Counted from the first letter of the stretch, positions 7,461-64,000 are shown. The stretch: 64,000 bases of DNA from Stegostoma tigrinum (GCF_030684315.1 NC_081376.1:11939049-12003048), one strand, 5' to 3'. Made by a program: numbers and translations. The notes: generated from the sequence alone by a model not told the origin.

Positions 7461-10400
7461 CTGGAAAATGAAATGAAATGAAGAAAGTCAACAATATTCC
7501 TCTACAGGGATAGTAGGAACTACAGATGCTGGAGAATCTGAGGTAATAAGGAGTAGAGCTGGATGAAGACAGCAGGCTAAGCAGCATCAGAGGAACAGGA
7601 AGGCTGATGCTTTGGGCCTAGGCCCTCTTCAAGGGTCTAGGCCCAAAACATCGGCCTTCCCGCTTCTCTGATGCTGCTTGGCCTGCTCTGTTCATCCAGA
7701 TCCACACCTTGTTATCCCAATATTCCTCGACAGTTCCCTTTAACCTTTTGAGCCAGAGTTGGTTTTAATTTTTATTTACAGTTTCTCCCACAGAATAACT
7801 TCATTTAAAAGAGCACTTTTCAATTTTTTTTAAGCAGTACAGCACAGAAACAGACCTTTCAGTCCAATTCATCCATGCCGACCAGATATTCTACATTAAT
7901 CTACTCCCATGTGCCAGCATTTGGCCCACATCCCTCTCAACCCTTCCTGTTCATATATCCACTCAGATGCCTTTTAAATGTTTGATTTGATTTGATTTTG
8001 ATTTATTGTAGTCACATGTACCTAAGTACAGTGAAAAGCATTGTTTTGTGAGCAGTACAGGCAGAGCATAACAAACTGTACCTACAGTTCATAGGGTGCT
8101 TAGAGCAAGGCCTGCACAGGAGATGTGCAAAATAAGATCAACATTAGCAAGATCCAATGGACTTAGAATTTAGTTTTAAAAGTGCGGAACGATTATCAGA
8201 AATGTGAGAATAAGATCTGCTGTCCAGGGCTTGCAAAGAGTTGCCCGGTGTCAGCATCATCTTCATTATCATGTATTATCTTTGCATCCGCCTCCACCAC
8301 TTCCTCTCTTCTTCCAGTTGCACACTTTAAGCTCTGTTTGTCACTGGCTGCGTATCGTATTATAAGTGCGATTGGAAGTAACTGTGAACCTGTTGTCATG
8401 CCTCACTGGGGCAGCTAGGTATACAGCCCAGCTATTCCCGGAGTCATCACAAAAGTTAAAACATTTTAAAAAGTACATAGAATTCCCCAATTTACCTCTC
8501 TTTTGGACCCAGATTGACAGAAAGCATGGGCTTGTTTTTTGCACTTCACAATAATTACTATTTATTACAAATGTATAGATTCTAACTCCGGATAAACAAT
8601 TATAAACCATCGACATGTAGTTGAACTGGTTAAAATTCTAACCATTTATAGAACTCTTTCTTTATACACCGGTGTGAACAGACACTATAAACAACATCAG
8701 TGTTCCGAATGGAGGGAAAGACCAGAAACTATTCTTTGGTCCCAGTCCGTAGAGTTTGGCCAAGACGACCCTTTAGCTGATCATAGAAACACAGAAAATG
8801 GGAGCAGGAGTAGGCCATTCATTCCTTCGAGACTGCTCCACCATTCAAAACAGTCGTGGCAGATTGTCCAACTTATTATCCTGTTCCCACTTTCATACCA
8901 TACCTTTTGATCCTTTTAACCCAAAGAACTATACCTAACGCCTTGAAAACATTCAATGTTTTGGCTCGACCGCTTTCTGTGGCAGAGAATTCCACTGGCT
9001 TATCTCACTCGGGTGAAGACATTTTCTCCTATTCTCAGTCTGAAGTGGCCAACAGCATATCCTTAGACTGCAACCCCTGACTCTGGACTGCCTGATTGCC
9101 AGGAACACCCTTCCTGTGTTTACCCTGTACTGTCCTGTTAGAATTTTACGTTTTTAAGAGGTCTCTCTCATTCTTCTTGACTCCAGTAAATATAGTCCTG
9201 ACAGATCTGTCTCTGTTCAGACATCAGTCCTGCCAACCCAGTCAGTCAACTCACTCACTTCAAAGCACACTGAAGCATCTCTGCATCTTCCTCATGGTTC
9301 ACCCTCCCACCCAGCTTTGTGTTGTGTGCAAATCTGTAGATATTGCATTGAGTTTGCTCACCTAAATTATTTGTGTAATGAATAGCTGGAGCCCACGAAT
9401 TACTGCCTGCCACTCACAAAAAGACCCATGCAAGTCAGCTCTTTGTTTACTATCTCTATCTTTGCCAGCACACTACAACCCAATCCCATGCACTTTAATT
9501 TTACACATGCTAATATTTTATGTGGGACTTTATCTGAAGCATTTTGAAAGTCCAAATGGACAACATCCACTGGTTCCCTCTTATCATAGACTGAATATTA
9601 TAAGGCCTTGCGGATTTAAATGACTGCTTCTTGGTTTTTCTTCTCCAAATATTTTTGCTTGTTTACAAGAAGCACGGAGTGATTTATAAAGCTCTCTGAC
9701 TTATTGATTGAATGTCACAGCTTCTGACAACTGGAAAGGGGACATAAACTGGTTATTTTAAAGTTTGAGATGCTTTTTACTGCAGTGCAAATACAGATCT
9801 GTCACTTCCAGAGATCTGTTGCACACGGCCTGAAAATTCACAGCCCTAACCTGTTAAGCTGCCTGAGAGTCATTAACAAAGTTGTTGGCTGGCAGAAGTC
9901 CTTTGTAATTAATAACTGGTCAACATTTCACAGACTAATTAGCAATTTGTTGCCAAGTGAATTCCATTTATATGCAGCCCTCTAACTCCAGCTCATCTGT
10001 AACTAGGCTTTTCCCACTCCTTGATGAAGCAATATGTTAGCAGCACTTACGATGGGTGTCAGGTAACTTGCTTTTAAAAAAGTTTATCAATCCTCCAACA
10101 GTCCTTGGCTTTTGAACCTCTCCTTTTCCCAATTCAATCCATAATCAAAAATGCAGATAAATAAAAGATATGGTCTCTACACTGTATAGATTAAATACTT
10201 TATTAATTTTGATTCTGTATGTTTGAACAAATGTAGAAACCTCACAGTGATGCAGTTTTGTTTTCCAAAATTGCCTGACAGCACCAACCAATCCTGGCTA
10301 CAATGTTCATGTCAGGGTGCAGAACTAATGGAAAATGCTACTTACATTCCTGTAAGGCAAAGTTCCCAAGCCCAGCTGGTGATATTCCACCTCTGAGGCC

Positions 10401-13400
10401 AAGTCCCAGACTCATCACCTCAGCCACTAAGTGTGTGTTAACCCAACGCCGCACTATTTCATGATTTTCATTTTCTTTAAGGGAATTCAGGTTAATTCCA
10501 AGCAGATCTCGAATGTTCTCGGCGGTGAGTTTCTGAAAATATGAAAAAGCCACAATACAATGACAACATTGTCCTCACTCTTCCTTCCACATTCTTTCTG
10601 AAATGATTCAAGAACAATCAGGTGCATAAGCAATGTGGAAACAGAAGGTCTCACCTATTTCCTGTTAATAATGTGAGTAAGTATTTATCCCAAATGTTTT
10701 CAGATCCCTTCATCCATCAAACCAATCTAATAATACGTGTTAACAAAGTTTCTTCTTCAACATTGAGTCTTTCCATTCTGTCAACAGATTTAATTTCACT
10801 TCTGATATCACTCCCTCCAATCAACTCAAGCTGTGTAACTCTAACCAAGTGGAGCTATAAATTGTCTTTTGAATTTGAAACATCGGAGGTTTATACATGG
10901 AATCCCCACAGTGTGCAACATACCTTTGGGCCTAACAAGTCCACTCCGCTCCTCCAAAGTGCATCTCACCCAGACACATCCCCCTATCCTTTCCCTGTAA
11001 CCCTCCATTTCCCATGTCGAATCCATCTAATTTACACATCTCTAGACACTACTGGCAATTTAGCATGGCCATTCTAGCATTTAAACCTGGTTGAAGTGAG
11101 GTAAACTTCATGGTTCCCTTTCCTTCACAGCTGAGATCATGATGTTCAGATGTGGTCTCTGGTCAAGGCAAGGTCTCATAAATACAGCAGTTGTGCAGAA
11201 AGGAGGTGACCTATGGTGATTAACATGGGCTGGAGTGTATGAATTCCTGTTTCTGGGCGCTGTATCTAATATCGGGTTTCTGTGTGAGGTGTTTAAGAGC
11301 TGGATGTTGGTGCATGCCTCCACTGATACTCACTTCTACTTCCACTGGATTGAGGCGGCTGAATGTCTCAAAGTCCATGTTGATGTCGCCAGCAGCTAAA
11401 TGCTGTAAATCAGACACTTGTGCACCACCTTTTAGAGATCAGAAAGAACTATCAGCTCACTATTTCTCAACAACAATTCTTCATAAAAATAGAGTGAAAT
11501 GGAAGATTTAATTCATTCGTTTTACTAATAAACTTGCTTGGTTAAAGATGGTAATGAACTGAAAATTAATTGATGTGCATATTTTTTTTCAAATAATCAT
11601 CAAAGCAGATTGTAATATAGCTTACCAATATATGGCTTGAGTTTGTTAAAATAGGCTTTAGGATCACCAGCAAGATCCTGGAACGCAACTTTAGCGATCC
11701 CAAAAAGAATGTCTTTCTTCGCCTGGGTACATGTGGAAATATTCAGTGGTTTGGCTTTCCTGCAACAGAGTGGTAATGATTTTTTGTTAACATGAACACT
11801 TTTAGGACTTTGTTGGTCTGAGTTCTCAGTTGGTCTGAGAATTGTCATTACACTTTGTTTCATGTTATCAGCAATTGTCCATTTACAAAGTGATCCTGGG
11901 AATCAGAGGTTTTCTGGGTCACCATTAAGGCTGTTTAACTGGGAGTTTGAATATTTTCCAGGCTCTACTGAAGATAGTGGCGTCAAGTTGTGTACTTTTT
12001 CTTTTCAGTACTGTCTTTCAAATACATCTGTGCCGTAGGAACTCAAGGATCAGCTGTTTAATTTACATTGTTTTGATCAGAGCGCACTCTCTGATTTGCT
12101 GCTTGTCAGCTCGTGATAATTTCAAACTGTTTCCTTGTTTTCTCCTTCAAGTGCCTGCACTTGGATTTCATGCTGAAGCATTTTGCCAATTTACTGTGGG
12201 CAACATTGATTTTTACAGACACCAGTGGGTAAAGCACCCCATATTTATCTGTTACATCAGCTTGAGAGAATCTGACACTCACTTCAGTTCACTGGGAAGG
12301 ATGGTCCTGAGGTTCTCTTCACGCAGAGTACATAATACTGGACCACCAATGACATCCAATGCAGTGGCATTTAGTGGCCCAGATCTCTGCAGGTAATTTG
12401 CAATAATTGCTTTGGTCTAAAAAGAAAAGAACCAGTGAAAGTTGGGTTTATTAACTTTTGCTCCATGCATGGTACAAATTCACAATAGTTTCTAACTACT
12501 TATTCATTTTCTCCACTGCTATGTATAAAATCAGGGCAGCTAACTTTTGACACAGGAAAAAATATAACATTTCCTTGTTGGAAACCTGGGACAATAAAGG
12601 CTCGATAACCGAATGCATGTTCCTTCAGATGTCAATTGAGTTGCTGTACATGTAGAGAAATCTTTGCTGTCATGGTTACCACAATGGCTTTTGTCAGAAT
12701 CCATTCCAAAGATCTAATAAAAATCTTCCCTGACTGCCCCTTATTTAGCAAACCAGTGTGTATATTATTTTTTATTCATTCACTAGATGTGAACATCATT
12801 GGCCATGCCAACATTTATTGCCCATCCCTAAGTGCCCAGAGGACAGTTAAGAACACTGTGCAAGAGCTGTGTGTCTGGAGTCTAGATGGCAGTTTTCTGC
12901 ATTAAAAGGATGATAGTGATTCTGACAGGGTTTTCCTGAAAATCAACAGCAGCTTCATGGTCATCATTAGACTCCAAATTCCAGGCTTTGTTACTGAATT
13001 CAAATTCCATCATCTGCAACGGTAGGATTTGAACCCAGGTCCCCAGAACATGACCTGGGTCTTGGGATTAAGAGTCTAATGATAATACCAGTAGCCCATC
13101 ACCTCCTTTTAATCAACCATAATGGCCCAGAGTCTTTCCAGCAACATAAGACTCTGTAAGCCAGGAGCTACCCCTCACACTGTGAAGGGATTCTCCATTG
13201 CCTGCTTATCACAGACAGGGACCTGGAGTTGCAGCTGAATGGTGTGGTGGTGAACAGTGCAGTCCCTTTTCCAAACAATCCTCACAGCAGGCCCAGCCAC
13301 CAGGTCCAACCAGTCCAGAATCAAACTGCAGCCTGGGTCAGTGCTGTGTCAATTTGGAATGGAAAACAAAGGAACAGAGTGTTATTTAAATGGAGAAAAA

Positions 13401-28400: not shown

Positions 28401-31073
28401 CCCTTGCAGACTCTGTGTCATCCTCACCACTTGCCTTCCCACCTATTTTTGCATCACCCTTGGCTATAGTACATTCATTTTCCCTATCCAATTCATGAAT
28501 ATATATTGTAATTAATTGAGGCCCATGCACTGATCTCTACAGCACACCACTATGGACCTACTGCCATGGGTGACCCTACCGGGAGCAAGCTGCCAATAAC
28601 ATCACTCGAGGGATCATCAGAACACGCAATCCTCTCCATCACAGACAGGCAGCAATCCTTGGAGGGAACATTGCCCTGTGGGCCAGCTGTCCTCTGCTGG
28701 AGTGACAGTACTTGTGCCCCTGCCATTGCCACTCCATCAGTGTTTAAACTTTTAGCAAAGATTTGCAGCTCAGGTTGTGGGTGAAGTTGTTGGCTTGCTT
28801 GCCAAGCTGGCTTGTTTTTGTTCAGATGTTTCATCACCATGCTCGGTGACATCATCAGTGGACTCTCTGATGAAGCGATGTTATTTCTACTCTGCTCGGA
28901 ATTTATACTGTCTGGTCCGTTATGGTGAGTAGCATCATTTCTCGTTTTGTTCTATATGGGTTTAGCAATGGGATCCAATTCCATATGTTTGTTGATCGCA
29001 TTATGGGTTGAGACCATGACTCTAGGAATTCCCATGTGTGTCTAGGTTTGGCTTGGCTACTATATTTATGTTGTCCCAGTTAAACTGATGGCCTTCCTTG
29101 TCTGAATGTACTGATATTAAGGAAGGGTTATAGTGTCATTTTGCTGCTAGCTGGTGTTCACATATTCTGACAGTTTCCTTCTTGTCCGTTTGATGTAATG
29201 TTTGTGGCAGTTGTTGCATGGTATTTTATAAACTATACCCAAGCCAAACATAGATCTGCACAGGAATACCTAGAGGCATGATTCTCAACGCATAAGGCAA
29301 TCAACAAACGTATAGAATTGGACCCCACATATAAACCCATATAGAACAAAACTGGAAATGACAGTACTCACCATAACAGACCGGACAGTGTAAATTCCAA
29401 GAGGATTAGAGCAACATCGCTTCATTGGAGGGCTCACTGATGATGTTGTACAGCGTGGTGAAGAAATGTCTGAACGAAAACAACCCAGCTTGGCCAACAA
29501 GTCATCAACCTCACTCCATCAGTGCCTTTGCTGTTCGGCCATCGATCAGCCAGCACCAGCTCCTACCATTCCTGTCAAGGTGGAGCATTCCGTGACTAAA
29601 TTACCTTCCTTCAGACCAAGAGCAGCTTCAGCTCAAACTGAAAAGTCATCTGCAGCTTCCCCCAGTAAAGTCTTTGCCAGTTGTGCTGCACTCACTGGTT
29701 AGCACTTTATGGAAAACACTGTCTACATGCCAAACAGGGAATGCACATACATTTGGAAATATTTTGTGCAAATGTGCAACAGAACATTTTTCCCCCAACT
29801 TACCAGTTGAGCACGCAAAACAGTCAAAAACAAACCTGTAAATGAAATATCAAAACCATATGTTAAAGGAAATCCCCACAAGTTATTTGTTCATCACAAT
29901 ACATAGTTCAAATTCAAGTGCAGCATCTGATTGTTGTGACAAGTCAAAGTTGAAAAAGAATGCAAATAAAACACTGCGGGGGCTTGAAATTTGAAACAAA
30001 CAGAATGCTAGAGAAACTCAGCAGATTTGGCAACATCTGTGGAGAGAGAAACAGAGTTAACATTTTGAGTCCGAAACAGTCACACCAGGTTCAAAACATT
30101 GTTTCCATTTGTCTCTCTCCACAGATGCTGCCAGAGTTGCTGAATTTCTCTAGCATTCTCTACGCTTCAAATAGGAAAAAAAAAGACTGATTCCAGTTGC
30201 CTAACACAATACTGAACATCTGCAATTTTATGGAGAAGGTGCAGAATGCACTCTGACCAAGGGAAAGTGATTAAAGTTACATCGACCTGTAATTACACAG
30301 TCAGTACTGTTGCAATACTCAGAGTGAATCACTTGAAGATTACGCAAAACTGCAAAATGCTTCAACAGCTTCGAGTGCAATCAAATCAAAAGACACCATT
30401 AATTATTTTAAGTAAAAATCGAAAGAACCGTGAGGGTGTAAATCAGAAACAAAAACAGAAATTGCTGGAAAGGCTCAGCAGATCTAAGGTCACTGGACCT
30501 GATACATTAACCCTGCTTCCAGATCTGCTGAGCTTTTCCAGCACCTACTGTCTTTGTGCCATTGATTATTTCAGCCTTCATTCCTACCAAATTTTCCATG
30601 GAAATTTTTTCTAATCAAAGTGAAAGAATCTTTGAACAGAGAACTCTCAAATCTCTGAAGTGTAGAATTCCACAATTTCAATTGCTTTGATGATAGATTT
30701 AATTTGTTTTCTTAATTTTTGTTTGTGGTATTGAGTTATAACTGTAGGATTTCTTTAGTCTGTTGAAAAACCAAGTTTAATACCTGTTGGCTCTAACTGA
30801 GTCTGGCCACTGAGAAGACCCTTTTCTATCAGATTTTGAACACAGTTGTTGGTCTGTCAGGCAGTTTTCTTTATGGCATGTAGGGGACTGCGTGTCAAAG
30901 CAGAGAAACAAGCCCAATCTAAAATGCATCAATTTATTTCACACCTACTACCTCCTGTAAGTTACAGACAATTTCTGAAGGTTAAACAGCCAAAGAATTG
31001 ACTTACCAATGACGACAAATGTCATCAACTTCACTGGAAAAGTCCAGTTAAGAACTGGTGTATTCCAACTCAT
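7372..31073 (-). CDS. msln: Mesothelin-like GPI-anchored protein, copy A (10 coding exons, 378 aa, no MPF domain)
   Basis: Coding exons on the minus strand: 31007-31073, 29804-29835, 22851-22920, 18179-18360, 15718-15864, 12283-12416, 11626-11759, 11334-11428, 10346-10532, 7372-7460. All introns are GT-AG with compatible phases; total 1137 nt with no internal stop. Peptides YSPSQLDAC, GLPEERIRQLG, GGAQVSDLQHLA, LTAENIRDLLG and SLGLGLRGGISP align by eye with mature human mesothelin (YKKWELEAC, GYPESVIQHLG, GGAPTEDLKALS, LTVAEVQKLLG, TLGLGLQGGIP). Orthology to MSLN versus MSLNL is not resolved. Confidence 0.9.
7503..7717. mobile_element. Short Penelope-derived fold-back element with 11-bp TSD
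   Basis: Internal palindrome centred near 7625; CAATATTCCTC at 7492-7502 and 7718-7728. Confidence 0.75.
10346..10532 (-). CDS. Copy A penultimate exon (KLTAENIRDLLG...NFALQE)
   Basis: 187 nt, ttttcag|...|gtaagt, in ORF 10338..10553. Confidence 0.93.
11334..11428 (-). CDS. Copy A exon (GAQVSDLQ...PVEVE)
   Basis: 95 nt, phase 1->0, donor gtgagt. Confidence 0.92.
11626..11759 (-). CDS. Copy A exon (KAKPLNISTC...KPYIG)
   Basis: 134 nt, ttgcag|...|gtaagc, in ORF 11600..11863. Confidence 0.92.
12283..12416 (-). CDS. Copy A exon (TKAIIANYLQRSG...PSELK)
   Basis: 134 nt, ttttag|...|gtgagt. Confidence 0.92.
13350..14750. mobile_element. Two decayed CR1 3' fragments, tail-to-tail (+13350-14090, -14100-14750)
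   Basis: Degenerate similarity to the 3' part of the 23580-25272 CR1 (e.g. YRTLVRPHLD in ORF 14420..14683). Confidence 0.7.
15718..15864 (-). CDS. Copy A exon (IYVNGLPEE...SPNLNT)
   Basis: 147 nt, phase 0->0, in ORF 15622..15873. Confidence 0.92.
17389..17416. repeat. (CT)n microsatellite
   Basis: About 13 CT units with one interruption. Confidence 0.8.
18179..18360 (-). CDS. Copy A exon, N-terminus of mature mesothelin (DCTMG...KLGE)
   Basis: 182 nt, AG/GT, lies in ORF 18116..18352; two conserved Cys. Confidence 0.92.
18411..18690 (+). mobile_element. HE1-type V-SINE
   Basis: tRNA-like head GTGGCTCAGTGGTTAGCA...GGTTTGATTCC followed by TGTGTGGAGTTTGCA...CCCCTGTGTCTGCGTG V-domain. Confidence 0.8.
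19400..19970 (+). mobile_element. Decayed CR1 3' fragment
   Basis: RRNVFTQTVVRLWNSLPQKAVE in ORF 19650..19862, plus CR1 3' UTR. Confidence 0.75.
20631..20837. mobile_element. Short Penelope-derived fold-back element, second family
   Basis: Palindromic; flanks 20617-20630 and 20838-20851 form a 14-bp direct repeat with 2 mismatches; CTGAGGA-AGGGTCACTGGGCCC-GAAA on minus strand. Confidence 0.7.
22851..22920 (-). CDS. Copy A pro-piece/furin exon (GVGENMSQSSSQMVSKRRMRRAT)
   Basis: ctgcag|...|gtgagt, 70 nt, phase 0->1; R-X-R-R furin consensus; counterpart in copy B at 50703-50772. Confidence 0.82.
23580..25272 (+). mobile_element. 5'-truncated young CR1-clade LINE with open reverse transcriptase frame
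   Basis: ORF 23572..25002 with KSPGPDG, YRPVSLTS, GVPQGSVLGPLLF, KFADDTK and HLEYCVQFWSP motifs; ends in a TTCTATG-type tail; lies antisense in an intron of copy A. Confidence 0.95.
26078..26916. repeat. Older inverted repeat (~26078-26323 / ~26700-26916)
   Basis: Collinear reverse-complement blocks (GATGTCCTTTGAAGATATGTCACTGG, TTCTTCAGGTCAAATATAGCCAA, TTATAGCTCCA). Confidence 0.85.
27560..28550 (-). mobile_element. Decayed CR1 3' fragment
   Basis: Reverse-strand similarity to CR1 RT C-terminus and 3' UTR. Confidence 0.65.
28743..29511. mobile_element. Penelope-like inverted (tail-to-tail) insertion with 13-bp TSD
   Basis: Arms ~28780-29060 and ~29235-29510 are reverse complements; flanked by CACTCCATCAGTG at 28730-28742 and 29512-29524; hammerhead-like core on minus strand at 28823-28860. 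Confidence 0.8.
29804..29835 (-). CDS. Copy A 32-nt exon (GLFLTVLRAQL), end of signal peptide
   Basis: tttacag|...|gtaagt, phase 1->0; same length and similar sequence in copy B (51495-51526). Confidence 0.78.
31007..31073 (-). CDS. Copy A first coding exon (MSWNTPVLNWTFPVKLMTFVVI), signal peptide start; whole exon 31007-31123
   Basis: Acceptor cctttttacag, ATG at 31073, donor G|gtaagt; homologous to copy B exon 52782-52888. Confidence 0.75.
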
Positions 31074-45143: not shown

Positions 45144-45232
45144 TTATGAATGATATTGCAAAGCAATTCCGAACACAGTGATGCATGTGGAGAGCAGGAG
45201 ACTGTAGCTGCTGACTGAAGCAGAACCAGGCA
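45144..45232 (-). CDS. Copy B GPI-signal exon (LPGSASVSSYSLLLSTCITVFGIALQYHS*)
   Basis: ttttccag acceptor, hydrophobic tail, TAA; AATAAA at 44911-44916. Confidence 0.88.
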
Positions 45233-48200
45233 CTGGAAAATAAAATGAAATGATTAGAAATAGACCAATAATAATTATCCTCCAAAGTATTCTTTGACTT
45301 TCATGAATGGGCATCTTTCACAAACATTACGTCATGCAAGTGCAGTTTTCAAACTTGCATTTTCTTTAACACGACATTGTTACACTCTTCCAGTTAGACT
45401 CAGTGATATATGATGTTAACTGGTTTTGGGGCACCATGATGGAATTCATAGTGACTCTGTGTAGATTAAATGCTTAAGCATACATCAGTATTTTCAAGGA
45501 CAGCACAGCTTGCAAATAAAATATTTCAGTGCATTAATAACTATAAAATACCACTTACATGGCGAAATGGAAAGATTCCCAAGCCCAGCTGGTGATATCC
45601 CACCTCTGAGGCCAATTCCCAGACTCATCACCTCGGCCACTGAGTGTGTGTTAACCCAACGCCGCACTATTTCATGATTTTCATTTTCTTTAAGGGAATT
45701 CAGGTTAATTCCGAGCAGATCTCGAATGTTCTCGGCGGTGAGTTTCTGTAAGATATGGAAAAGCCACAATACAATGACAACATTGTCCTCACTCTTCCTT
45801 CCACATTCTTTCTGAAATGATTCAAGAACAATCAGGTACAAAAGCAATGTGGAAACAGAATGTAATAACACGAGCAAATATTTATCCCAAATGTTTCCAG
45901 AACCCTTCATCCAACAAACCAATCTAATAATACGTGTTAACAAGGTGTCTTCTTCAACATTGAGTCCTTCCATTCTGTCAATGGATTTAATGCCACTTCT
46001 GATATCACTCCCTCCAATCAACTCAAGCTGTGTAGCTCTAACCGAACAGAGCCATAAATTGTCTTTTTAATTTGAAGCATCAGACGTTTATATATGGAGC
46101 ACCTACAGTGTGGAACATACCTTTGGGCCTAACAAGTCCACACTACTCCTCCAAACAGCATCCCAACCAGACACATCCCCCTGTCCTTTCACTGTAACCC
46201 TGCATTTCTCATGTCGAATCCACCTAATGTACCTATCCCTGAACACTATGGGCAATTTAGCATGGCCATTTTAGCATGGCCAACCCACCTAACCTGCACA
46301 TCTTTGGACTGTAAAAGGAAACTGGAGCACACAATGGAAACCCACGCAGACACGGAGAGAATGTGCAAACTCCACACAGTTGCCTGAGGCTGGAATCAAG
46401 CCCATGTGCCTGATGTTGTGAGGCAGCAGTGCTAACCACTGAGCCACCATGCTCTTCGAAACTAACACAACGGGGTGGTAGTGAACCAGCTGTCTGTACT
46501 TGACCCTGCAACATTTCAGTTCCATTACACACATGGAAATGAATGACAACTAAAATGCTTATTATGGCATTTTTCATTTATTAGCAGTCAACCAGACCAA
46601 GTGCACCCCAGTCCCAGAGCACCTCAGTCTCACTTTAAGCCTGGATGAAGTGAGGTGAACTTCATGGTTCCCTTTCCTTCACAGCTGAGATCATGATGTT
46701 CAGATGTGGTCTCTGGTCTAGGCAAGGTCTCATAAATACAGCAGTTGTGCAGAAAGGAGGTGACCTGTGGTGATTAACACGGACTGGAGTGTATGAATTC
46801 CTGTTTCTGGGCGCCGTATCTAATATCGGGTTTCTGTGTGAGGTGTTAAAGAGCTGGATGTTGGTGCAGGCCTCCACTGATACTCACTTCTACTTCCACT
46901 GGATTGAGGCGGCTGAATGTCTCAAAGTCCATGTTGATGTTGCCAACAGCTAAACTCTGTAAATCAGACACTTGTGCACCACCTTTTAGAGATTGGAAAG
47001 AACTATCAGCTCACTATTTCTCGACAACAATTCTTCATAAAAATAGAGTGAAATGGCAGATTTAATTCATTTCGTATTAATAATAAACTTGCTTGGTTAA
47101 AGATGGTAATGAACTGAAAATTAATTGATGTGCATATTTTTTCAAATAATCATCAAAGCAGATTGTAATATAGCTTACCAATATATGGCTTGAGTTTGTT
47201 AAAATAGGCTTTAGGATCACCAGCAAGATCCTGGAACGCAACTTTAGCGATCCCAAAAAGAATGTCTTTCTTCGCCTGGGTACATGTGGAAATATTCAGT
47301 GGTTTGGCTTTCCTGCAACAGAGTGGTAACGCTTTTTGTTAACATTTACACTTAGATGATGCAGGTAGTCTGTGCTCAATGACAAGGTCATCTTTTAATT
47401 TTCCCTCAATTAAGCAAATGTCCCTGTTCACAAAATATTCCTTTGCAGGTTTGTAATGTCACAACTATGTCAAATAGAGAGTAGGAGAGTAGAGTCGCAG
47501 GATAACTTTAGAGAATCTGACACTCACTTCAGTTCACCGGGAAAGATGGTCCTGAGGTTCTCTTCACGCAGAGTACACAGTAATGGACCGCCAATGGCAT
47601 CCAATGCAGTGGCATTTAGTGGCCCAGATCTTTGCAGATAATTTGCAATAATTGCTTTGGTCTAAAATGAAAGAGAAAAGTTCCGATTACTATTTTTTGC
47701 CCCATATATACTATAAATTCGGAATGTTGTCTGATTATGTATCCATTCTTTTCACTTTTTTGCTTGGTAAAACATGTGCGAGCTTAACTACTTATGCAGG
47801 AGAAAATACAAGATAAGTTTACTAGGAATCCATATCAGTATCAACAGCATGGGTGCAGAGGCACCGGAAAGATTTATGAGAATGGCCACAGCAATGAGGA
47901 ATTTCAGTTCTGATGGGTAGGTTGCTGAAGCCAAAACAAGTCCTCTCAAAAAAGATTGAGAGGCGATCAGACAGAGATGTTCAAAGACTGCATAGAATAA
48001 ACGGGGAGAAACCACTTCCTTTGGTGCAATGGTCAAGAACCAATGGATACCAACTTAAACTAAAGGACCAAGAAAACCCAAAGGTAACACAAGGAAAAAT
48101 AACCTACAAAATAAGCGAATCAAGAATTCAAAAACATAAATTGCCGGCAAAACAGTTTTGATGAAGAGTCACCAGGTTTGAATTGTTAACTCGTTGCTTT

Positions 48201-51200
48201 CTTTCCACAAGTACTGCTAGACCTGCTGAATTTCACCAGCAATTTTTGTTTTCGTTTCAGATTTCTAGCATCCGCAGTTCTTTGTTTTATTTACAGCTTG
48301 AGAATTCATTGTCGGAGAATACAGTGGAAACAGAAACAATTAAAGCTTTCAAAACAAAATGGCTGTGTCATCTAAAGAGAATTTGCATCGATATGATGAT
48401 GGTGATGAGTGGGAATAGCTGAGCTGCTCCTGCAGAAGCTCAGCACTGACACAGTGGGTCTCTTTCTGCACTGAGATAATTCTCTTACTCTATGATTCTC
48501 ACTGAAATGTAACAGAAAGTAACAACTGAAGTGCCTTTAGGTTCTGATTGAGTTGCTCTATGTTTGCTTCACTCAGTAATGTTACTACCATCAAAGTTCT
48601 TCTTGTCAGAATCATATCTTTGTCGAAGGGATTCTCTCCATATACTCTTCATTTAATGACCTTGCTATGACTGATTTCCATCTGCAATGTCACATGGATG
48701 AATACTGTGTTTCTTTTAGTTCAAAGAGCATTTTTAAACTGTCTGATGACAAATGCATTGCCACATCACAGGTAGCAATAAGGTTCCATTTTATCCCTAG
48801 TATTTCTTATCATCCATCACAACCCAAACAATATTTGAATTCAGGGTACAACACATGCTCTTTGATGGGATCACACAATCACAAGCTTGCTGCTAATCCA
48901 TACCGTGTTCAAATTTGGGCTATTCCTTAGAACAAGTGCAAGGGTATCGGCATTCGTTATGTTCCACATGCTGATCTCTTCAGGACCGTACACAGTAATA
49001 ATGAATCCCAGCTGTTGTATCCGTTCTTCAGGCAGTCCACTTGTGTATAGCTGTTCCAAAACATCAAAAAATATATATTCAGTCAGATTAAAGTGCACAG
49101 GATGTCAAAACTATGTTTATAAACTGTGGATCTCCTAGAGACTGTGTAACGGCTATGGGTATCTCCCTATAGCTACACAGCAATGGAAGGCTAATGGTGG
49201 GACTGTGCACCACCAGTTGGGCCCTTGCTGTGGGTCATGCTCATCAGGACAATTTTATATTGGAGACCCCATCATGTCTTGTCCAATTGCTCAGTTCACA
49301 CCCTTCATCTCCTGTCATACATGTTTCTCTGAAGGTTGGGAATCTTACAGGTTAAATTCACTTGAAATTTGGCCACCTGCCTCTGCAGCCTAGGGGTGTA
49401 ATTGACTCAAGCAATTCAAACGTCTCAAAAACTACAATCTAATCTTTCATGACGTGCACCAAGATTTGAAAGGCTGCATTTATTCAACATCCTTAGACTT
49501 AACAAAATGAGCTACATGTTGAAGCAAGTAATATGTCGAGAATCTAGACAAAAGTGTATGGTAGAAGAGATTAGAGGGTGGCAATGACAAATTTAGACGA
49601 GGAAAAATGTGAGGAAGGCTTGAATGGAGCATAAACATCACCATGGACTGATGGGGCTGAATGGCCTGAATCTGTGTAGTTTCTGTGCTATCCTATACAT
49701 AGATGACTCTTTGCCATCAGTTATATTGTATACTAGAAGTATTCATCCTAGGAAGAATATATCTCCAAATGAATCAACCTTACCCCATCCAATTTCCTTT
49801 TTAGAACAAGAAGCTGATCTCTGCTGAAAGCTATATGTCCCAGTTCAGTAAGGTTTGCAAGCAGCACACTGTTGTTCAAACAGGCATCTAACTGTTCAGT
49901 CGGATAAATTGCGGGTAACAATGTATTGTCGGTCATATCCTTTGTAATGAAGCCTTCGGTACAATCTGCAAGCACACAAACACATTTGCATTAGACACAT
50001 GCAGATGCCGATTTGTAGAATGAAATTGTTACAACGCGGAACATACTGCCGAACTTTGCTGGGAATGGAACACTGAGCCTGAGGCGTAGGACACAACATG
50101 TTGCAGGTTCGCAAGATAATCTGACAACGTGCCACATGAGGTGACATTTAAAAATGACGACCAAAGGTTTGGTCATTAATGTGGGATGCAAAGACTGCCA
50201 TAAAGGAAGACAGAAGGGCATGCAGGCCGAGAAGTTTAAAGAGGCAATTCCAGATTTTAGAGTCTTAATAATATTGCTGCCCACAGTCAAGCAATTAAAA
50301 TTGGGATTGCTCAAGACGTCAGTGTTGGACACACACAGATAACCTTGTGGTCTAGAAGTAGCTACAATGATAGGGAGGTGTAAGAACACAGAGAAATGTT
50401 TAAAGAAACAAAAGGAGGCAGTATCCATCCGAAAATCTACGTATGGCCAGTGAGAACCATGTCGATGCATAAACAGGACTTGTTACTAATTTGGATACGA
50501 GCAGCATAGCTTTGGATGGACAGAAAAGCATGGTGAGTGGAAGATGGGAAGCTGACCAGAAAGGCATTGCAGAAGAGAAGCCAGGAGAAAATTGTGGCAT
50601 GGATGAGGGTTACAACAGTCAATGAGCAGGAACGGGTCAGAGTCAGATGATGTTACACAGATCTACATCACTAAAGAGTTTGCCTCATTGCTTATTACTC
50701 ACCAGTGGCACGTTTCACTCGTCTTCTTAATAATATCTGCCTGAGTCCTTGGGATCCTTTCTCACCAAGAGCCTGTGGAGGGCCAAACAAGATATTCACT
50801 CCTACATTTATTTATATCATACGTTTTAAACATGTAATTAACTCAATAGCCATATAGCTTGATTTAAAGGCTGGCTGACAGTGACTCAGTGGTTAGCTCA
50901 GTACTGCCTCATAGCACCAAGGAACCAGGTTTGGTTCCACCCACAGCTGACTGTTTGCTTGGAGTCTGCACATACCCCCCCACCATGTCTGCAAAGATTT
51001 CTTCTGGTGCTCTGGTTTCCTCTTACAGTCCAAAGATGTGCAGGTTAGGGCGGATCATCCCAGCTAAATTGTCCCATATTGTCCAGGGGTTTGCAGTTAG
51101 ATGGGTTCGCCATGGGAAATGCGGAGATACAGGGGTGGGGTTGGGTCCGGGTGGGGTGCTCCTCAGAGGGTCGGTTTGGACTTGATGGGCCGAATGACCT

Positions 51201-52839
51201 GCCTCCACTCTCTAGGAACTCTATAATTATTTTACACAAAATGAGGAATGTGTGATGTGAACGGCCTCTGCAATTATTCATTGGTTACTGCTGTTTTTTA
51301 AACATTAATAAAACAAAACACAGGTCAATTTCTCACAATCTCACTGTTCTTATCAAATTTGCCCTTCTGAAACTTTGCCTTAATAATTATACAATACTTT
51401 AAACCAGACTGATCTAGGAATGATTGTGACCTCTAGTTTATCACTGAATTGTATTTTCAACAATGTGCAAGAGAAGATATAAAATTCAACTTACCGGCTC
51501 AGCATTCAAAATAGTCAGAAAGTAACCTAAAAGGAAATATCAGAATAATCTGTTAAAGGAAAGTTCTACAGATCATTTGTTCATCAAAACGTACACACTT
51601 CATATCTCAGTACAACGTCTTATAGCTCATAAACAAACAAGTCAAAGAAGAAGAGAAACTGTTTCAGATCCCTGAACCCAAAACATGAGCAGCTGAATGT
51701 TGATTATCACAGAAGTCATTGTGTGAATCAAACTCCAACTGAAGTAGAGTATTGATGTAAGGAGTTCAGATGAATGAGGGGACAGTCTCATAGAGACTCA
51801 TAAAATTCTAACAGGACTAGGCAGGGTAGATGCAGGGAGGAAGTTCATGATGGTGGGTGTGTCCAGAACCAGGGTCACAGTATGAGGACTTGGGATAGAC
51901 AATTTAGGATAGAGGTAAAGGGACAATTCTTCACCCAAACAATGGTGAGCCTATGGAATTCATTATCACAGGAAGTAATTGATACCAAAACATTGAGTGT
52001 GTTCAAGAGGTGACTAGACATAGCACTTGGGGCAAATGGGATCAAAGTTTATGGAGAGAAAGCAGGATTAGGCTATCAAGTTGAATGATCAGCCATGATC
52101 ATGAAGAATGGCGGAGCAGACTCAAAGGGCTGAATGGCCTCCACCTGCTCCTATTTTCTATGTTTTTATGTATGATTTGTTTGATTATGGTTCGAAACAA
52201 TTCTTATCAGGTTACACATGACAATAAATCATATCAAAATATACCTGCCACTGTATGGAGCAGTCCCATTGCAATACCCACAGTGAATCATTACAGTATG
52301 AAGCTATTAAAAAGCAACAGAATGCTTCAACAATATGCTATACAATTAGATGAATAGTGCTACTTCTTATTTAACACATTCTTCCTCAGAAATCTTCTAT
52401 TGTGAGACATTAAGAGATTAGTGAGAGAATCCTGCACCAATTAGCACTCCAATATATACAGAAGATCTATGAAATAGAATTCCAGAAGTTAAATTGCTCA
52501 GAAGATAGACCTGAATTCTGATTAGAGGTTTTTGTTAGCAGTACTGAATTCAAAGTGCAAGACTTCTTCAGCCAGCTGAATACAAAATATAATTCAAACA
52601 CATTGAGTAACAGGCCATTTCATCTGCAGCTGACTACACAGTTAAGGACATCTGCTCTGTGAAGCCAACGTAGTCCAAAAATGCATTGATTTTATTTCCC
52701 TGGCTTTTCACACTTGTGACCTGACTTAGGCCACAGATAGGTTCTGGAGTTGAACAATAGCAATTAACAGCATTAACCTACCAATGACAATGAGCGTTAC
52801 AAACTTCATTGGAGGGGTGCAATTGGACACTGCCATCAT
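45144..52839 (-). CDS. msln: Mesothelin-like GPI-anchored protein, copy B (10 coding exons, 375 aa, no MPF domain)
   Basis: Coding exons on the minus strand: 52782-52839, 51495-51526, 50703-50772, 49784-49965, 48904-49050, 47528-47661, 47179-47312, 46888-46982, 45559-45745, 45144-45232. Exons 2-10 have the same lengths as in copy A (32, 70, 182, 147, 134, 134, 95, 187, 89), all GT-AG; 1128 nt open. Confidence 0.9.
45559..45745 (-). CDS. Copy B penultimate exon (KLTAENIRD...NLSISP)
   Basis: 187 nt, in ORF 45494..46021. Confidence 0.93.
46100..46452 (-). mobile_element. HE1-type V-SINE in copy B intron (orthologous partial copy at 10900-11080 in copy A)
   Basis: GGTGGCTCAGTGGTTAGCACTGCTGCCTCAC head on minus strand; V-domain present. 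Confidence 0.8.
46888..46982 (-). CDS. Copy B exon (GAQVSDLQSLAVGNINMDFETFSRLNPVEVE)
   Basis: 95 nt, AG/GT. Confidence 0.92.
47179..47312 (-). CDS. Copy B exon (KAKPLNISTC...)
   Basis: 134 nt, appears identical to copy A 11626-11759. Confidence 0.92.
47528..47661 (-). CDS. Copy B exon (TKAIIANYL...)
   Basis: 134 nt, AG/GT. Confidence 0.92.
48904..49050 (-). CDS. Copy B exon (LYTSGLPEE...SPNLNT)
   Basis: 147 nt, in ORF 48871..49098. Confidence 0.92.
49784..49965 (-). CDS. Copy B exon (DCTEG...KLDG)
   Basis: 182 nt, in ORF 49748..49975. Confidence 0.92.
50703..50772 (-). CDS. Copy B pro-piece/furin exon (ALGEKGSQGLRQILLRRRVKRAT)
   Basis: ccacag|...|gtgagt; RVKR furin consensus. Confidence 0.82.
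50870..51215 (+). mobile_element. HE1-type V-SINE
   Basis: GTGACTCAGTGGTTAG head and CCAAAGATGTGCAGGTTAGG core. Confidence 0.75.
51495..51526 (-). CDS. Copy B 32-nt exon (GYFLTILNAEP)
   Basis: ccttttag|...|gtaagt. Confidence 0.78.
51765..52170 (+). mobile_element. Decayed CR1 3' fragment
   Basis: Similar to 19400-19970; ends TTCTATG. Confidence 0.7.
52782..52839 (-). CDS. Copy B first coding exon (MMAVSNCTPPMKFVTLIVI); whole exon 52782-52888
   Basis: ctttttacag acceptor, ATG ATG, donor gtaggt. Confidence 0.75.
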
Positions 52840-55279: not shown

Positions 55280-55580
55280 CCACAGTCTAGATCCGCAGTC
55301 ATAGTAAAGCTTGCATTAAACTGAAATAATATTACACAGCAACAATCAATGTAAAATAAAAACCTTTCAAGTTATCTTGAAACATTTTCTCCAAGTAAAT
55401 TCTTATCCTTCACATCCAAGATTATCCATCTTAAATAAAAGCTATACCTTGAAAATGTGTCTTCTGTCTTTTGTGAAAACTGCTGAGCACTGCACTGAAT
55501 GAATGAACAAGCCTCTGGGATTTTATAGCTGCAGCCATCCTCTTAAGGCTATTCTTCTCATGAAAAGTCTGGGTGTGGTT
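55280..55580 (-). promoter_or_regulatory. Putative TATA promoter and 5' UTR exons of copy B (exon ~55448-55497; candidate exon 55280-55320)
   Basis: TATAAAA at 55521-55527, donor AAG|gtatag at 55448; tttcag|...G|gtgagt at 55280-55320; GGGTGTGGTT (KLF/RUNX-like) at 55571-55580. Confidence 0.45.
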
Positions 55581-61513: not shown

Positions 61514-63901
61514 TAATAAGGAATATTGCAGTGTGATTCCGATCACACTGATACCAAGGGAAAGCAGGTGACTGTAGCTATTGGGCAAAGCAGAACCAGT
61601 CATCATTGGAAAATAACATGAAATAAACTTGTTGTGAACGATTATTCTCTACACCATTCTTTCTACAACACTTCTTCTGGAATTATATTGTGTAAAATTG
61701 TACCAATCACAAATATCATTTCATATTAAAGAATAGGATGTTCACTTTAAAAGTTTATTAAATACTTCTAATTGCGCACAATGACTTATGTGGCTAGTTC
61801 TATAAAGTATTTTTATAAATGAAGTGATAGTGACTTTGTGTAGATTTTAACTTCCTTGTTAGTTTTGAATCTATATAAACAAACACCTGTATCCTCAAGA
61901 ACAGCACAACCTCCTAATTTGCTTCCGTGACGACATTAATCAATCCTATGCTATAGTGAAAGCACTTGTCAGTGCTGAGAATAACAATACCAAATGGCAG
62001 TTACATTCCCGGAAGGAAAAGTTCCCAAGTCTAGCAGGTGATATTCCACCTTTAAGGCCAATTCCCAGACTCATAACCCCAGCCACTGTGTGTGAGTTAA
62101 CCCAGTACTGCACTTTTTTATGATCTCCATTTACTTTAAGGAATTCACGTTTGTTCCAAGCAGGTCTCGAATGTTCTGGGCAGTGAGTTTCTGAAAGATA
62201 AGTTGGTTGTAATGTTACAACAGAATATTCTCATGTCTGTTTTATAATGTCAGAAGGAGGAAGGCACCACTGAAAGAATAATGTACATTGAAAGACACAT
62301 ACAAATAATACAGAAACAAGGTGATTAATAGGAGAAGTAACGGTATAGTGGTATTATTGCTGGACGGTTAACCCAGGGACCTAGCTAAGTGTTGGGGACC
62401 TGGGTTCAATTCCCACCATGTAGATTTTGAATTTGAATTCAGTAAAAATCTGGAATTCAGAGTCTGGTGATGACAATGAGTCAATTGTCAGAAAAACCCA
62501 TCTAATGTCCTTGAGGGGAAGGAAATCTGCTGTCCTTACCAAGTCTGGCCTACATGTGATCCCCAACCCACAGCTATGTGACTGTTGCTGTAGGCAGTTA
62601 TGGATAGACAACAAGTGCTGGCCTAGACATCCTGTGAAAGAAGAAACCCACTTGCTCATGTTATTATTTGCAATCTATGTAAGTAAAAAAATCTTAATTG
62701 CATATGTACCATAACCTTCACCTACCCCCCATCCCATCTGATACTCAACGTAGCATAGTTGCTGTCGTAACCTTTTCATTCTTTCATACTAGCAATCATA
62801 CTGTTCTGATGAATTTAATTCCAATCCTGATGTGAGGCCCTCCAATCAACCTGAAGTATGTCGCTCTAACCAAGTGGTGCTGTGAATAATCTCTTTAATT
62901 TGAGGGAGCTGGGTTAGAAATGCTCTTCAAAGGTAGCAGAACTGGCCAGTTGTGAACCAGCTGTCTGTGCTTGACCCTGCACCATTTCACTTCCATTACA
63001 CACAAGGAAATGAACGACAACTGAAATGTTTATTATGGCATTATTTGCTTAATAACGGTCATACAGTCGAGTGCACCCCAGTCCCACTTTAAACCTGGTC
63101 GAAACGTGATAAACTTCATGGTTCCCTTTCCTTCACAGCTGAGATCATGACATTCAGATGTGGTCTCTAGTCTAGGCAAGGTCTCGTAAATATAGCAGGT
63201 GTGCAGCAAAGAGGTGACCTGTGGTGATTAACATGGGCTGGATTGTATGAATTCCTGTTTCTGGGCACTGTATCTAATATCGGGTTTCTGTGTGAGGTGT
63301 TAAAGAGCTGGATGTTGGTGCAGGCCTCCACTGATACTCAGTTCTATTTCCACTGGATTGAGGTGGCTGAATGTCTCAAAGCCCAAGTGGATGTTGCCAG
63401 CAGCTAAACTCTGTAAATCAGATAAAACCCTAAAAGAACTGCGGATGCTGTAAATCAGGAACAAAAACAAAGTTGCTGGAACATCTCAGCAGGACTGTCA
63501 GCATCTGTGAAGGAGAAAACAGTTAACATTTCGGGTCAAGTGACCCTTCCTCAGAATTCTGTAAATCAGATGCTCGTGCACCACCTTCTAGAGAACAGAG
63601 AGAACTATCAACGCACTATTTCTAAACAACAATTCTTCATAAAAATTGAGTGAAATGGAGGATTTGTATTTAATTGGTAAACTTTTAGATGTAGAAATTG
63701 CAATGAACTTCAAATTAATTGTACAATTCTTCAAATTATCATCAATGCAGATTGTAATATAGCTTAGCAATATGTGGCTTGAGTTCATTAAAATAGGCTT
63801 TGAGTTCACCAGCAAGATCCTGGAATGCAACTTTAGCGCCACCAAAAAGCATGCCTTTCTTCACCTGGGTACATGTGGAAATATTAAGTGGTTAGGGCGT
63901 C
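61514..63901 (-). pseudogene. Mesothelin-like pseudogene, copy C (3' exons only; continues beyond window)
   Basis: Exon relics: 63768-63901 (in-frame TAA at 63892-63894, donor GT->CT); ~63342-63585 (148-bp insertion, donor GT->CT); 62005-62190 (186 vs 187 nt, 1-bp deletion near 62140 giving TAA); 61514-61605 (acceptor AG->AA, stop lost). Confidence 0.9.
63424..63557 (-). mobile_element. 134-bp Penelope-derived insertion inside a copy C exon, 14-bp TSD
   Basis: TCTGTAAATCAGAT at 63410-63423 and 63558-63571; the site is single-copy in A and B. Confidence 0.9.
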
Positions 63902-64000
63902 CTGCAATAAAATGGTAATGCTGTCACAGCTTGGATAACATGAACACTTTAAGGAATTTAGAGGTCTGTGTTCAATAAGAAGCTCATCTTTTCACTTTCC

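Follow-up and report, generated by a model that had tools for sequence, protein, structure and literature searches.

Mesothelin-like genes without MPF in a tandem cluster of Stegostoma tigrinum and in other cartilaginous fishes

Two intact genes in the window

The DNA analysed here, which we call the window, is a 64,000-nt stretch of the Stegostoma tigrinum genome (G000:C27:11939049-12003048). It holds two intact mesothelin-like genes, A and B, both on the minus strand. Human mesothelin is made as a precursor from which an MPF half is released. A and B have another order: two signal-peptide exons are followed by a 70-nt exon carrying a furin motif, then by the mature mesothelin body and a tail of the glycosylphosphatidylinositol (GPI) type. 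We rebuilt both genes by hand. Each has 10 coding exons and all introns are GT-AG; the exons of A run from 31073 to 7372 and encode 378 aa, and B has an open reading frame (ORF) of 375 aa. The features are as follows.

52782..52839, minus strand: gene B exon 1, with the ATG and the beginning of the signal peptide; ends in phase 1
51495..51526, minus strand: gene B exon 2 of 32 nt, completing the signal peptide and ending in phase 0
50773..51494, minus strand: gene B intron 2, 722 nt, the expected place of MPF exons
50703..50772, minus strand: gene B exon 3 of 70 nt, entered in phase 0 and left in phase 1, with the short pro-piece and R-x-K/R-R
45559..49965, minus strand: gene B exons 4-9 (182, 147, 134, 134, 95 and 187 nt), encoding the mature mesothelin module, in which both disulfide cysteine pairs are present
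49965-49784, 49050-48904 and 47661-47528, minus strand: gene B exons 4-6
47312-47179, 46982-46888 and 45745-45559, minus strand: gene B exons 7-9
45144..45232, minus strand: gene B exon 10, with a spacer of small residues, a hydrophobic tail that is the predicted GPI signal, and the stop codon
7372..31073, minus strand: gene A, intact paralog, 378 aa, 10-exon layout as in B
31073-31007, 29835-29804 and 22920-22851, minus strand: gene A exons 1, 2 and 3

The junction between exons 2 and 3 is in phase 0 in both genes. The original prediction, made by a model from the sequence of the window, had proposed this direct phase-0 join of the signal peptide to a 70-nt furin exon, total lengths of 375-378 aa, and a B intron 2 of about 720 nt, about half of it repeat; the hand-built models and their RefSeq counterparts agree with it on each point. 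The gene B protein is identical to P0001 (RefSeq XP_048408590) and gene A matches P0034 (RefSeq XP_048408329) exon for exon, both annotated as "mesothelin-like protein" of S. tigrinum. The gene A counterpart of B exon 2 was located by blastn at 29804-29835. An in-frame TGA lies three codons 5' of the ATG in both genes, so no coding exon can run into the ATG exon. Both ends of the proteins are hydrophobic, with a maximum 11-residue hydropathy of 2.7-3.0 at the N-terminus and 2.1-2.3 at the C-terminus. The pattern R-x-K/R-R-A/S-T has exactly two matches in the six frames of the window, one in each gene. Upstream of B we also noted a candidate non-coding first exon on the minus strand (55448-55527), with a TATA-like box at 55527-55521 and a GT donor at 55447; no homolog of it was seen upstream of A or D, an intact paralog introduced below.

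Absence of MPF from the cluster

Flanks of 50 kb and 60 kb were added to the two sides of the window. The resulting 174 kb contain no N; four tandem copies lie in them, namely pseudogene C, genes B and A, and the intact paralog D. The Pfam Mesothelin match is confined to profile positions 291-594 of 624, and in neither A nor B is the furin site separated from the signal peptide by a human-type MPF domain. As queries we used five regions that precede the mature module in long relatives, with a cut-off of E<1e-3 and the region of a long gene (see below) as control. None of the five gave a match at this cut-off in the 174 kb. On the control region four of them gave 31, 26, 25 and 10 matches; the fifth, a mammalian MPF, gave 0 matches in cluster and control alike. 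Since one of these four, the first, comes from the long gene's own product, the three cross-species queries are the real control. Long-gene exons had no match to the cluster at the DNA level. Within B intron 2, a high-copy repeat at ~50880-51225 fills roughly half of the intron, and the longest open AG..GT segments (107-185 nt) fall inside it, in line with the earlier claim that this intron hides no MPF exons. A and B are truly MPF-less.

Three weak matches in the cluster (E 0.061, 0.38 and 0.83) were considered as MPF relics. Two were translated and looked repeat-derived, and we rejected the candidates.

Could MPF exons instead be missing from the assembly, or be spliced in from elsewhere? 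The models rest on genomic sequence, and the core of the intron 2 repeat (51035-51178), which has ~20,000-fold depth in DNA contigs, is not spanned by any listed contig from four sequencing runs. These runs behave as DNA of one sample: over the A/B locus apart from the 3' part of gene B, introns are covered and splice joints are absent, which is uninformative on expression. Against such an artefact stand the single layout of A, B, C and D, the protein length shared by 17 named species, the upstream in-frame stops and the absence of N from the 174 kb. In addition, three of the four Logan proteins in a skate cluster hold a complete 375-aa ORF on contigs of only 1,450-1,706 nt, which points to spliced transcripts. 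We regard an annotation or assembly artefact as scarcely credible.

Distribution and origin of the short form

A giant mesothelin-like gene, P0192, lies ~2.4 Mb away on the same chromosome (G000:C27:9308608-9654112; 9.31-9.65 Mb). Its RefSeq model of 7,881 aa has five MPF-plus-mature units with Pfam matches in the MPF region, and MPF-like and further repeats stand ahead of each module, unlike in the short genes. The model is 5'-incomplete, since it has no signal peptide and homologous exons run ~20 kb further upstream. The furin motif is kept in its last two modules and is missing from the first three. In the last unit the furin exon is 118 nt long and has the phases of exon 3 of the short genes (0 in, 1 out); the exons after it (182, 147, 134, 134, 95 and 187 nt) have the short-gene sizes. 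The exon block ahead of this furin exon is in phase 0 at both ends, and its removal therefore leaves the frame intact. A long, MPF-bearing ancestor probably lost an exon block that started and ended in phase 0.

Homolog searches returned cartilaginous-fish proteins alone (207-430 aa); together with a chimaera protein they represent 17 named species, to which the short protein length is common. In a profile search the mature module was C-terminal in proteins of up to 7,139 aa (best 150 of 237 matches). Elsewhere, short forms with a signal peptide are found in camelids, where all 15 members of one cluster measure 327-445 aa, as a gecko MSLN, as MSLNL-type proteins of geckos (two) and a bird (one), and in lungfish and reedfish; the non-mammalian bony-vertebrate short forms are each represented by one or two database models. 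Squamate MSLN models span 393-801 aa.

Some of these models have arrangements of their own. The lungfish protein P0046 has a signal peptide, a furin motif and then two tandem mature modules without MPF. P0058, P0070 and P0071 (geckos, manakin) are MPF-less and MSLNL-type, with a long Ser/Thr/Pro-rich stalk between mature module and C-terminal tail. In P0054, P0080, P0097, P0128 and P0138, mostly from squamates, the part before the furin site is shortened in a graded manner, from ~475 to 77 residues.

In a tree of 47 modules, hand-chosen from 162, the chondrichthyan short forms make up one clade (support 100/99) with sharks, rays and the chimaera inside. The clade therefore predates the shark-chimaera split, which took place ~420 million years ago. 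Its nearest relatives are chondrichthyan long-gene modules, with an open fork at its position among them (88/85). One option in the original prediction, that MPF was deleted in this lineage, is not supported as regards the lineage, the short form being one clade across cartilaginous fishes. The other option, a distinct short architecture, stood as regards the layout, on the Pfam and query searches; its novelty did not, because the short form is found throughout cartilaginous fishes and a form of this kind is already in print for mammals. In the dog, mesothelin is without MPF but retains the signal peptide together with the furin and GPI sites (PMC11417096), and the same source cites Kim and Hahn 2011 (PMID 21132261) for MPF loss in cow, pig, horse, panda, hedgehog and dog (Laurasiatheria). 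As the architecture is known from mammals and A and B are already modelled in RefSeq, the gain here is comparative and not a new kind of system. Across the literature searched, with subscription journals mostly outside coverage, we found no publication that describes an MPF-less mesothelin from sharks, rays or fish, and nothing on repeated MPF loss outside mammals. An old, independent chondrichthyan origin, repeated loss across vertebrates and a natural motif-less paralog appear to be unreported there.

The shark genes resemble Laurasiatherian MSLN in having no MPF and in their series of predicted signal peptide, short pro-piece with furin motif, mature body and predicted GPI signal. Camel MSLN aligns with lemur MSLN at the signal peptide and then again from residue 268. 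They differ in forming a tandem cluster of paralogs beside a retained giant MPF-bearing gene, and so are not the sole MSLN gene, and in their separate origin. With test groups chosen after inspection of the tree, and under LG+G4 with no mixture model, the approximately unbiased (AU) test rejected shark and camel short forms as one group (p-AU 1e-64); the shark forms do not descend from the Laurasiatherian deletion event and are convergent with it. The same test rejected a single ancient short gene uniting shark with reedfish (p-AU 0.00035) and, with less force, one uniting shark with lungfish (p-AU 0.021). The short state requires 7 changes on the best tree and over the whole bootstrap range, counts that give no direction. 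Direction comes from the long proteins of shark, ray, chimaera, frog and primate: they contain Pfam MPF positions, which makes MPF most simply ancestral. Taken with the rejected shark-camel grouping, the 7 changes suggest that MPF loss was likely recurrent and that sharks likely reached the short design independently.

The short genes could also stem from a duplicated 3' end of the long gene that then captured unrelated signal-peptide exons, or the short form could be ancestral with MPF added later. Exons 1-3 of the short genes have no detectable similarity in the 200 kb with the long gene's 5' end; since the signal-peptide exons are unmatched there, internal deletion is a probable, inferred route. 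The open position of the short clade and the undirected change counts also leave room for these scenarios. Such very short exons may, however, have diverged beyond detection, MPF is most simply ancestral given its presence in long forms from shark to primate, and short forms are nested among long relatives in several clades. We therefore consider capture or a short-first history improbable, and favour loss of the exon block.

The furin motif, the mature module and the other copies

Gene B scored 195 bits against Pfam Mesothelin PF06060 (cut-off 25.8) and is a member of the family. Its mature part aligns with human mesothelin from the first residues (PDB 7ued, E 6e-46), and Cys 55/82 and 192/218 align with human C302-C326 and C442-C468. 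All nine Foldseek matches at E<=0.001 were mesothelin. The shark proteins thus share with human MSLN (PF06060; PDB 7ued, 8cx3) a full-length mature module with both disulfide pairs, a furin motif in the same place and a GPI-type tail; they differ in having no MPF, in not keeping W321 and in having no one-to-one ortholog placement in the tree. Otoancorin and stereocilin belong with mesothelin to one superfamily of GPI-anchored helical-repeat proteins (PMC2628672); the shark proteins score as Mesothelin family. An unassigned mesothelin-like protein is listed in a table of a catshark semen proteome (PMC11083954).

We scored the motif in 30 short proteins of chondrichthyans whose N-terminus is intact, N-truncated models and near-duplicates being left out. 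Twenty-three have the strict R-x-K/R-R, 4 the minimal R-x-x-R and 3 neither. The P4 and P1 arginines underwent 1 and 3 parsimony changes, fewer than any of the 19 other pro-piece columns (mean 8.4, minimum 4), which points to selection on the motif. The site is kept in both paralogs, as the original prediction held, and its two arginines are constrained. The further suggestion that cleavage still matters is only in part backed by this constraint and by the 23 strict sites, and is weakened by the 4 minimal and 3 motif-less proteins, D among them, and by human processing without furin.

Together these results favour a reading that we hold to be probable as a whole: A and B are genes of a chondrichthyan MPF-less clade that likely arose by loss of an exon block, and their products would be trimmed by a convertase, anchored by GPI and able to bind a ligand through the N-terminus. 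The product likely enters the secretory pathway, where the signal peptide is probably removed behind a residue in the region of 28-33 and a GPI anchor is likely added at the C-terminal tail. A furin-type convertase would clip a pro-piece of 18-23 residues. The result would be a helical solenoid at the cell surface whose N-terminal domain begins where mature human mesothelin begins; the likely partner of that domain is a glycoprotein or mucin. In human, the CA-125 site lies in the N-terminal 64 residues of mature mesothelin (PMC10035497), with Y318, W321 and E324 as binding residues (PMC11417096). Because W321 is not kept, the ligand of the shark proteins is likely one other than CA-125.

Several findings weigh against this reading, besides the signal-peptide exons unmatched at the long gene's 5' end. 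The three proteins without any R-x-x-R are paralog D here, basking-shark D and the chimaera protein, and four of the 30 have only the minimal form. Among database representatives, 8 of 12 short modules and 58 of 114 long ones carry the strict motif, which is therefore no constant feature of the family, and processing of the human precursor continues when the motif is mutated or furin is missing (PMC13383088). The AlphaFold model is helical, with a moderate pLDDT of 66.7 that falls below 50 in the pro-piece, and TM-scores to mesothelin are 0.37-0.39 by query length. Of the CA-125 residues, B keeps Y318, does not keep W321 and has D in place of E324.

The motif might accordingly be a largely dispensable left-over in an exon that is needed to hold the frame from signal peptide to mature body, where trimming 20 residues changes little. 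Its absence or reduction in the paralog D proteins of two species, in the chimaera and in the four minimal proteins fits this, as do the R-x-x-R-only alpaca protein P0200 and the dispensability of furin in human cells. A left-over would not be expected to show two arginines that change less than each of the 19 pro-piece columns across sharks, rays and chimaera, and strict sites persist in the short forms of camel, geckos, a bird, lungfish and reedfish. We judge a left-over unlikely and hold it more probable that the site is cut.

Although mesothelin is a major target in cancer, what it normally does and what its cleavage is for are unclear (PMC10035497, PMC13383088). An old, independent MPF-less clade would show MPF to be repeatedly dispensable, and the motif-bearing A and B beside the motif-less D offer a ready comparison for the role of cleavage apart from MPF release. 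More tentatively, in a reading that we think less likely than not, MPF may have been dropped at least 7 times in jawed vertebrates with the site kept in some members of each lineage, which would make the conserved unit a mature solenoid that works only with a cut N-terminus; sharks would have expanded it into a small receptor family in which D is uncleaved and has a different role.

The remaining copies and the tract shared by A and B are as follows.

61523..63924, minus strand: 3' part of pseudogene C, with stops and frameshifts (window end 64000)
G000:C27:11906072-11931655: paralog D, intact, 393 aa, with a 94-nt exon 3
46634..47353, minus strand: near-identical tract of B, 96% identical to gene A 11080-11801 with introns included, likely gene conversion

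Exon 7 is 100% identical between A and B at the DNA level and its flanking introns 96%. Over exons 6-9 with their introns (window 45545-47756 vs 10332-12517) identity is 83-96%, far above that of the 5' halves. At the protein level A and B are 62% identical in residues 54-114, 78% in 115-163 and 95% in 164-338; the whale-shark orthologs of A and B are 89-94% and 92-93% identical in the same parts. This pattern suggests gene conversion between A and B in the 3' half, with the binding end diverging. If so, the N-terminal binding domains diverge (62% and 78%) while the membrane-proximal halves are homogenised (95%).

C and D follow the same short layout as A and B. Exons 1-3 of pseudogene C lie just outside the window (~G000:C27:12005737-12007981) in the MPF-less order; exon 2 is duplicated, and the furin motif is degraded, with its P2 basic residue gone. 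Paralog D has a histidine at P1 of the motif, and its carpet-shark orthologs retain R-x-x-R only.

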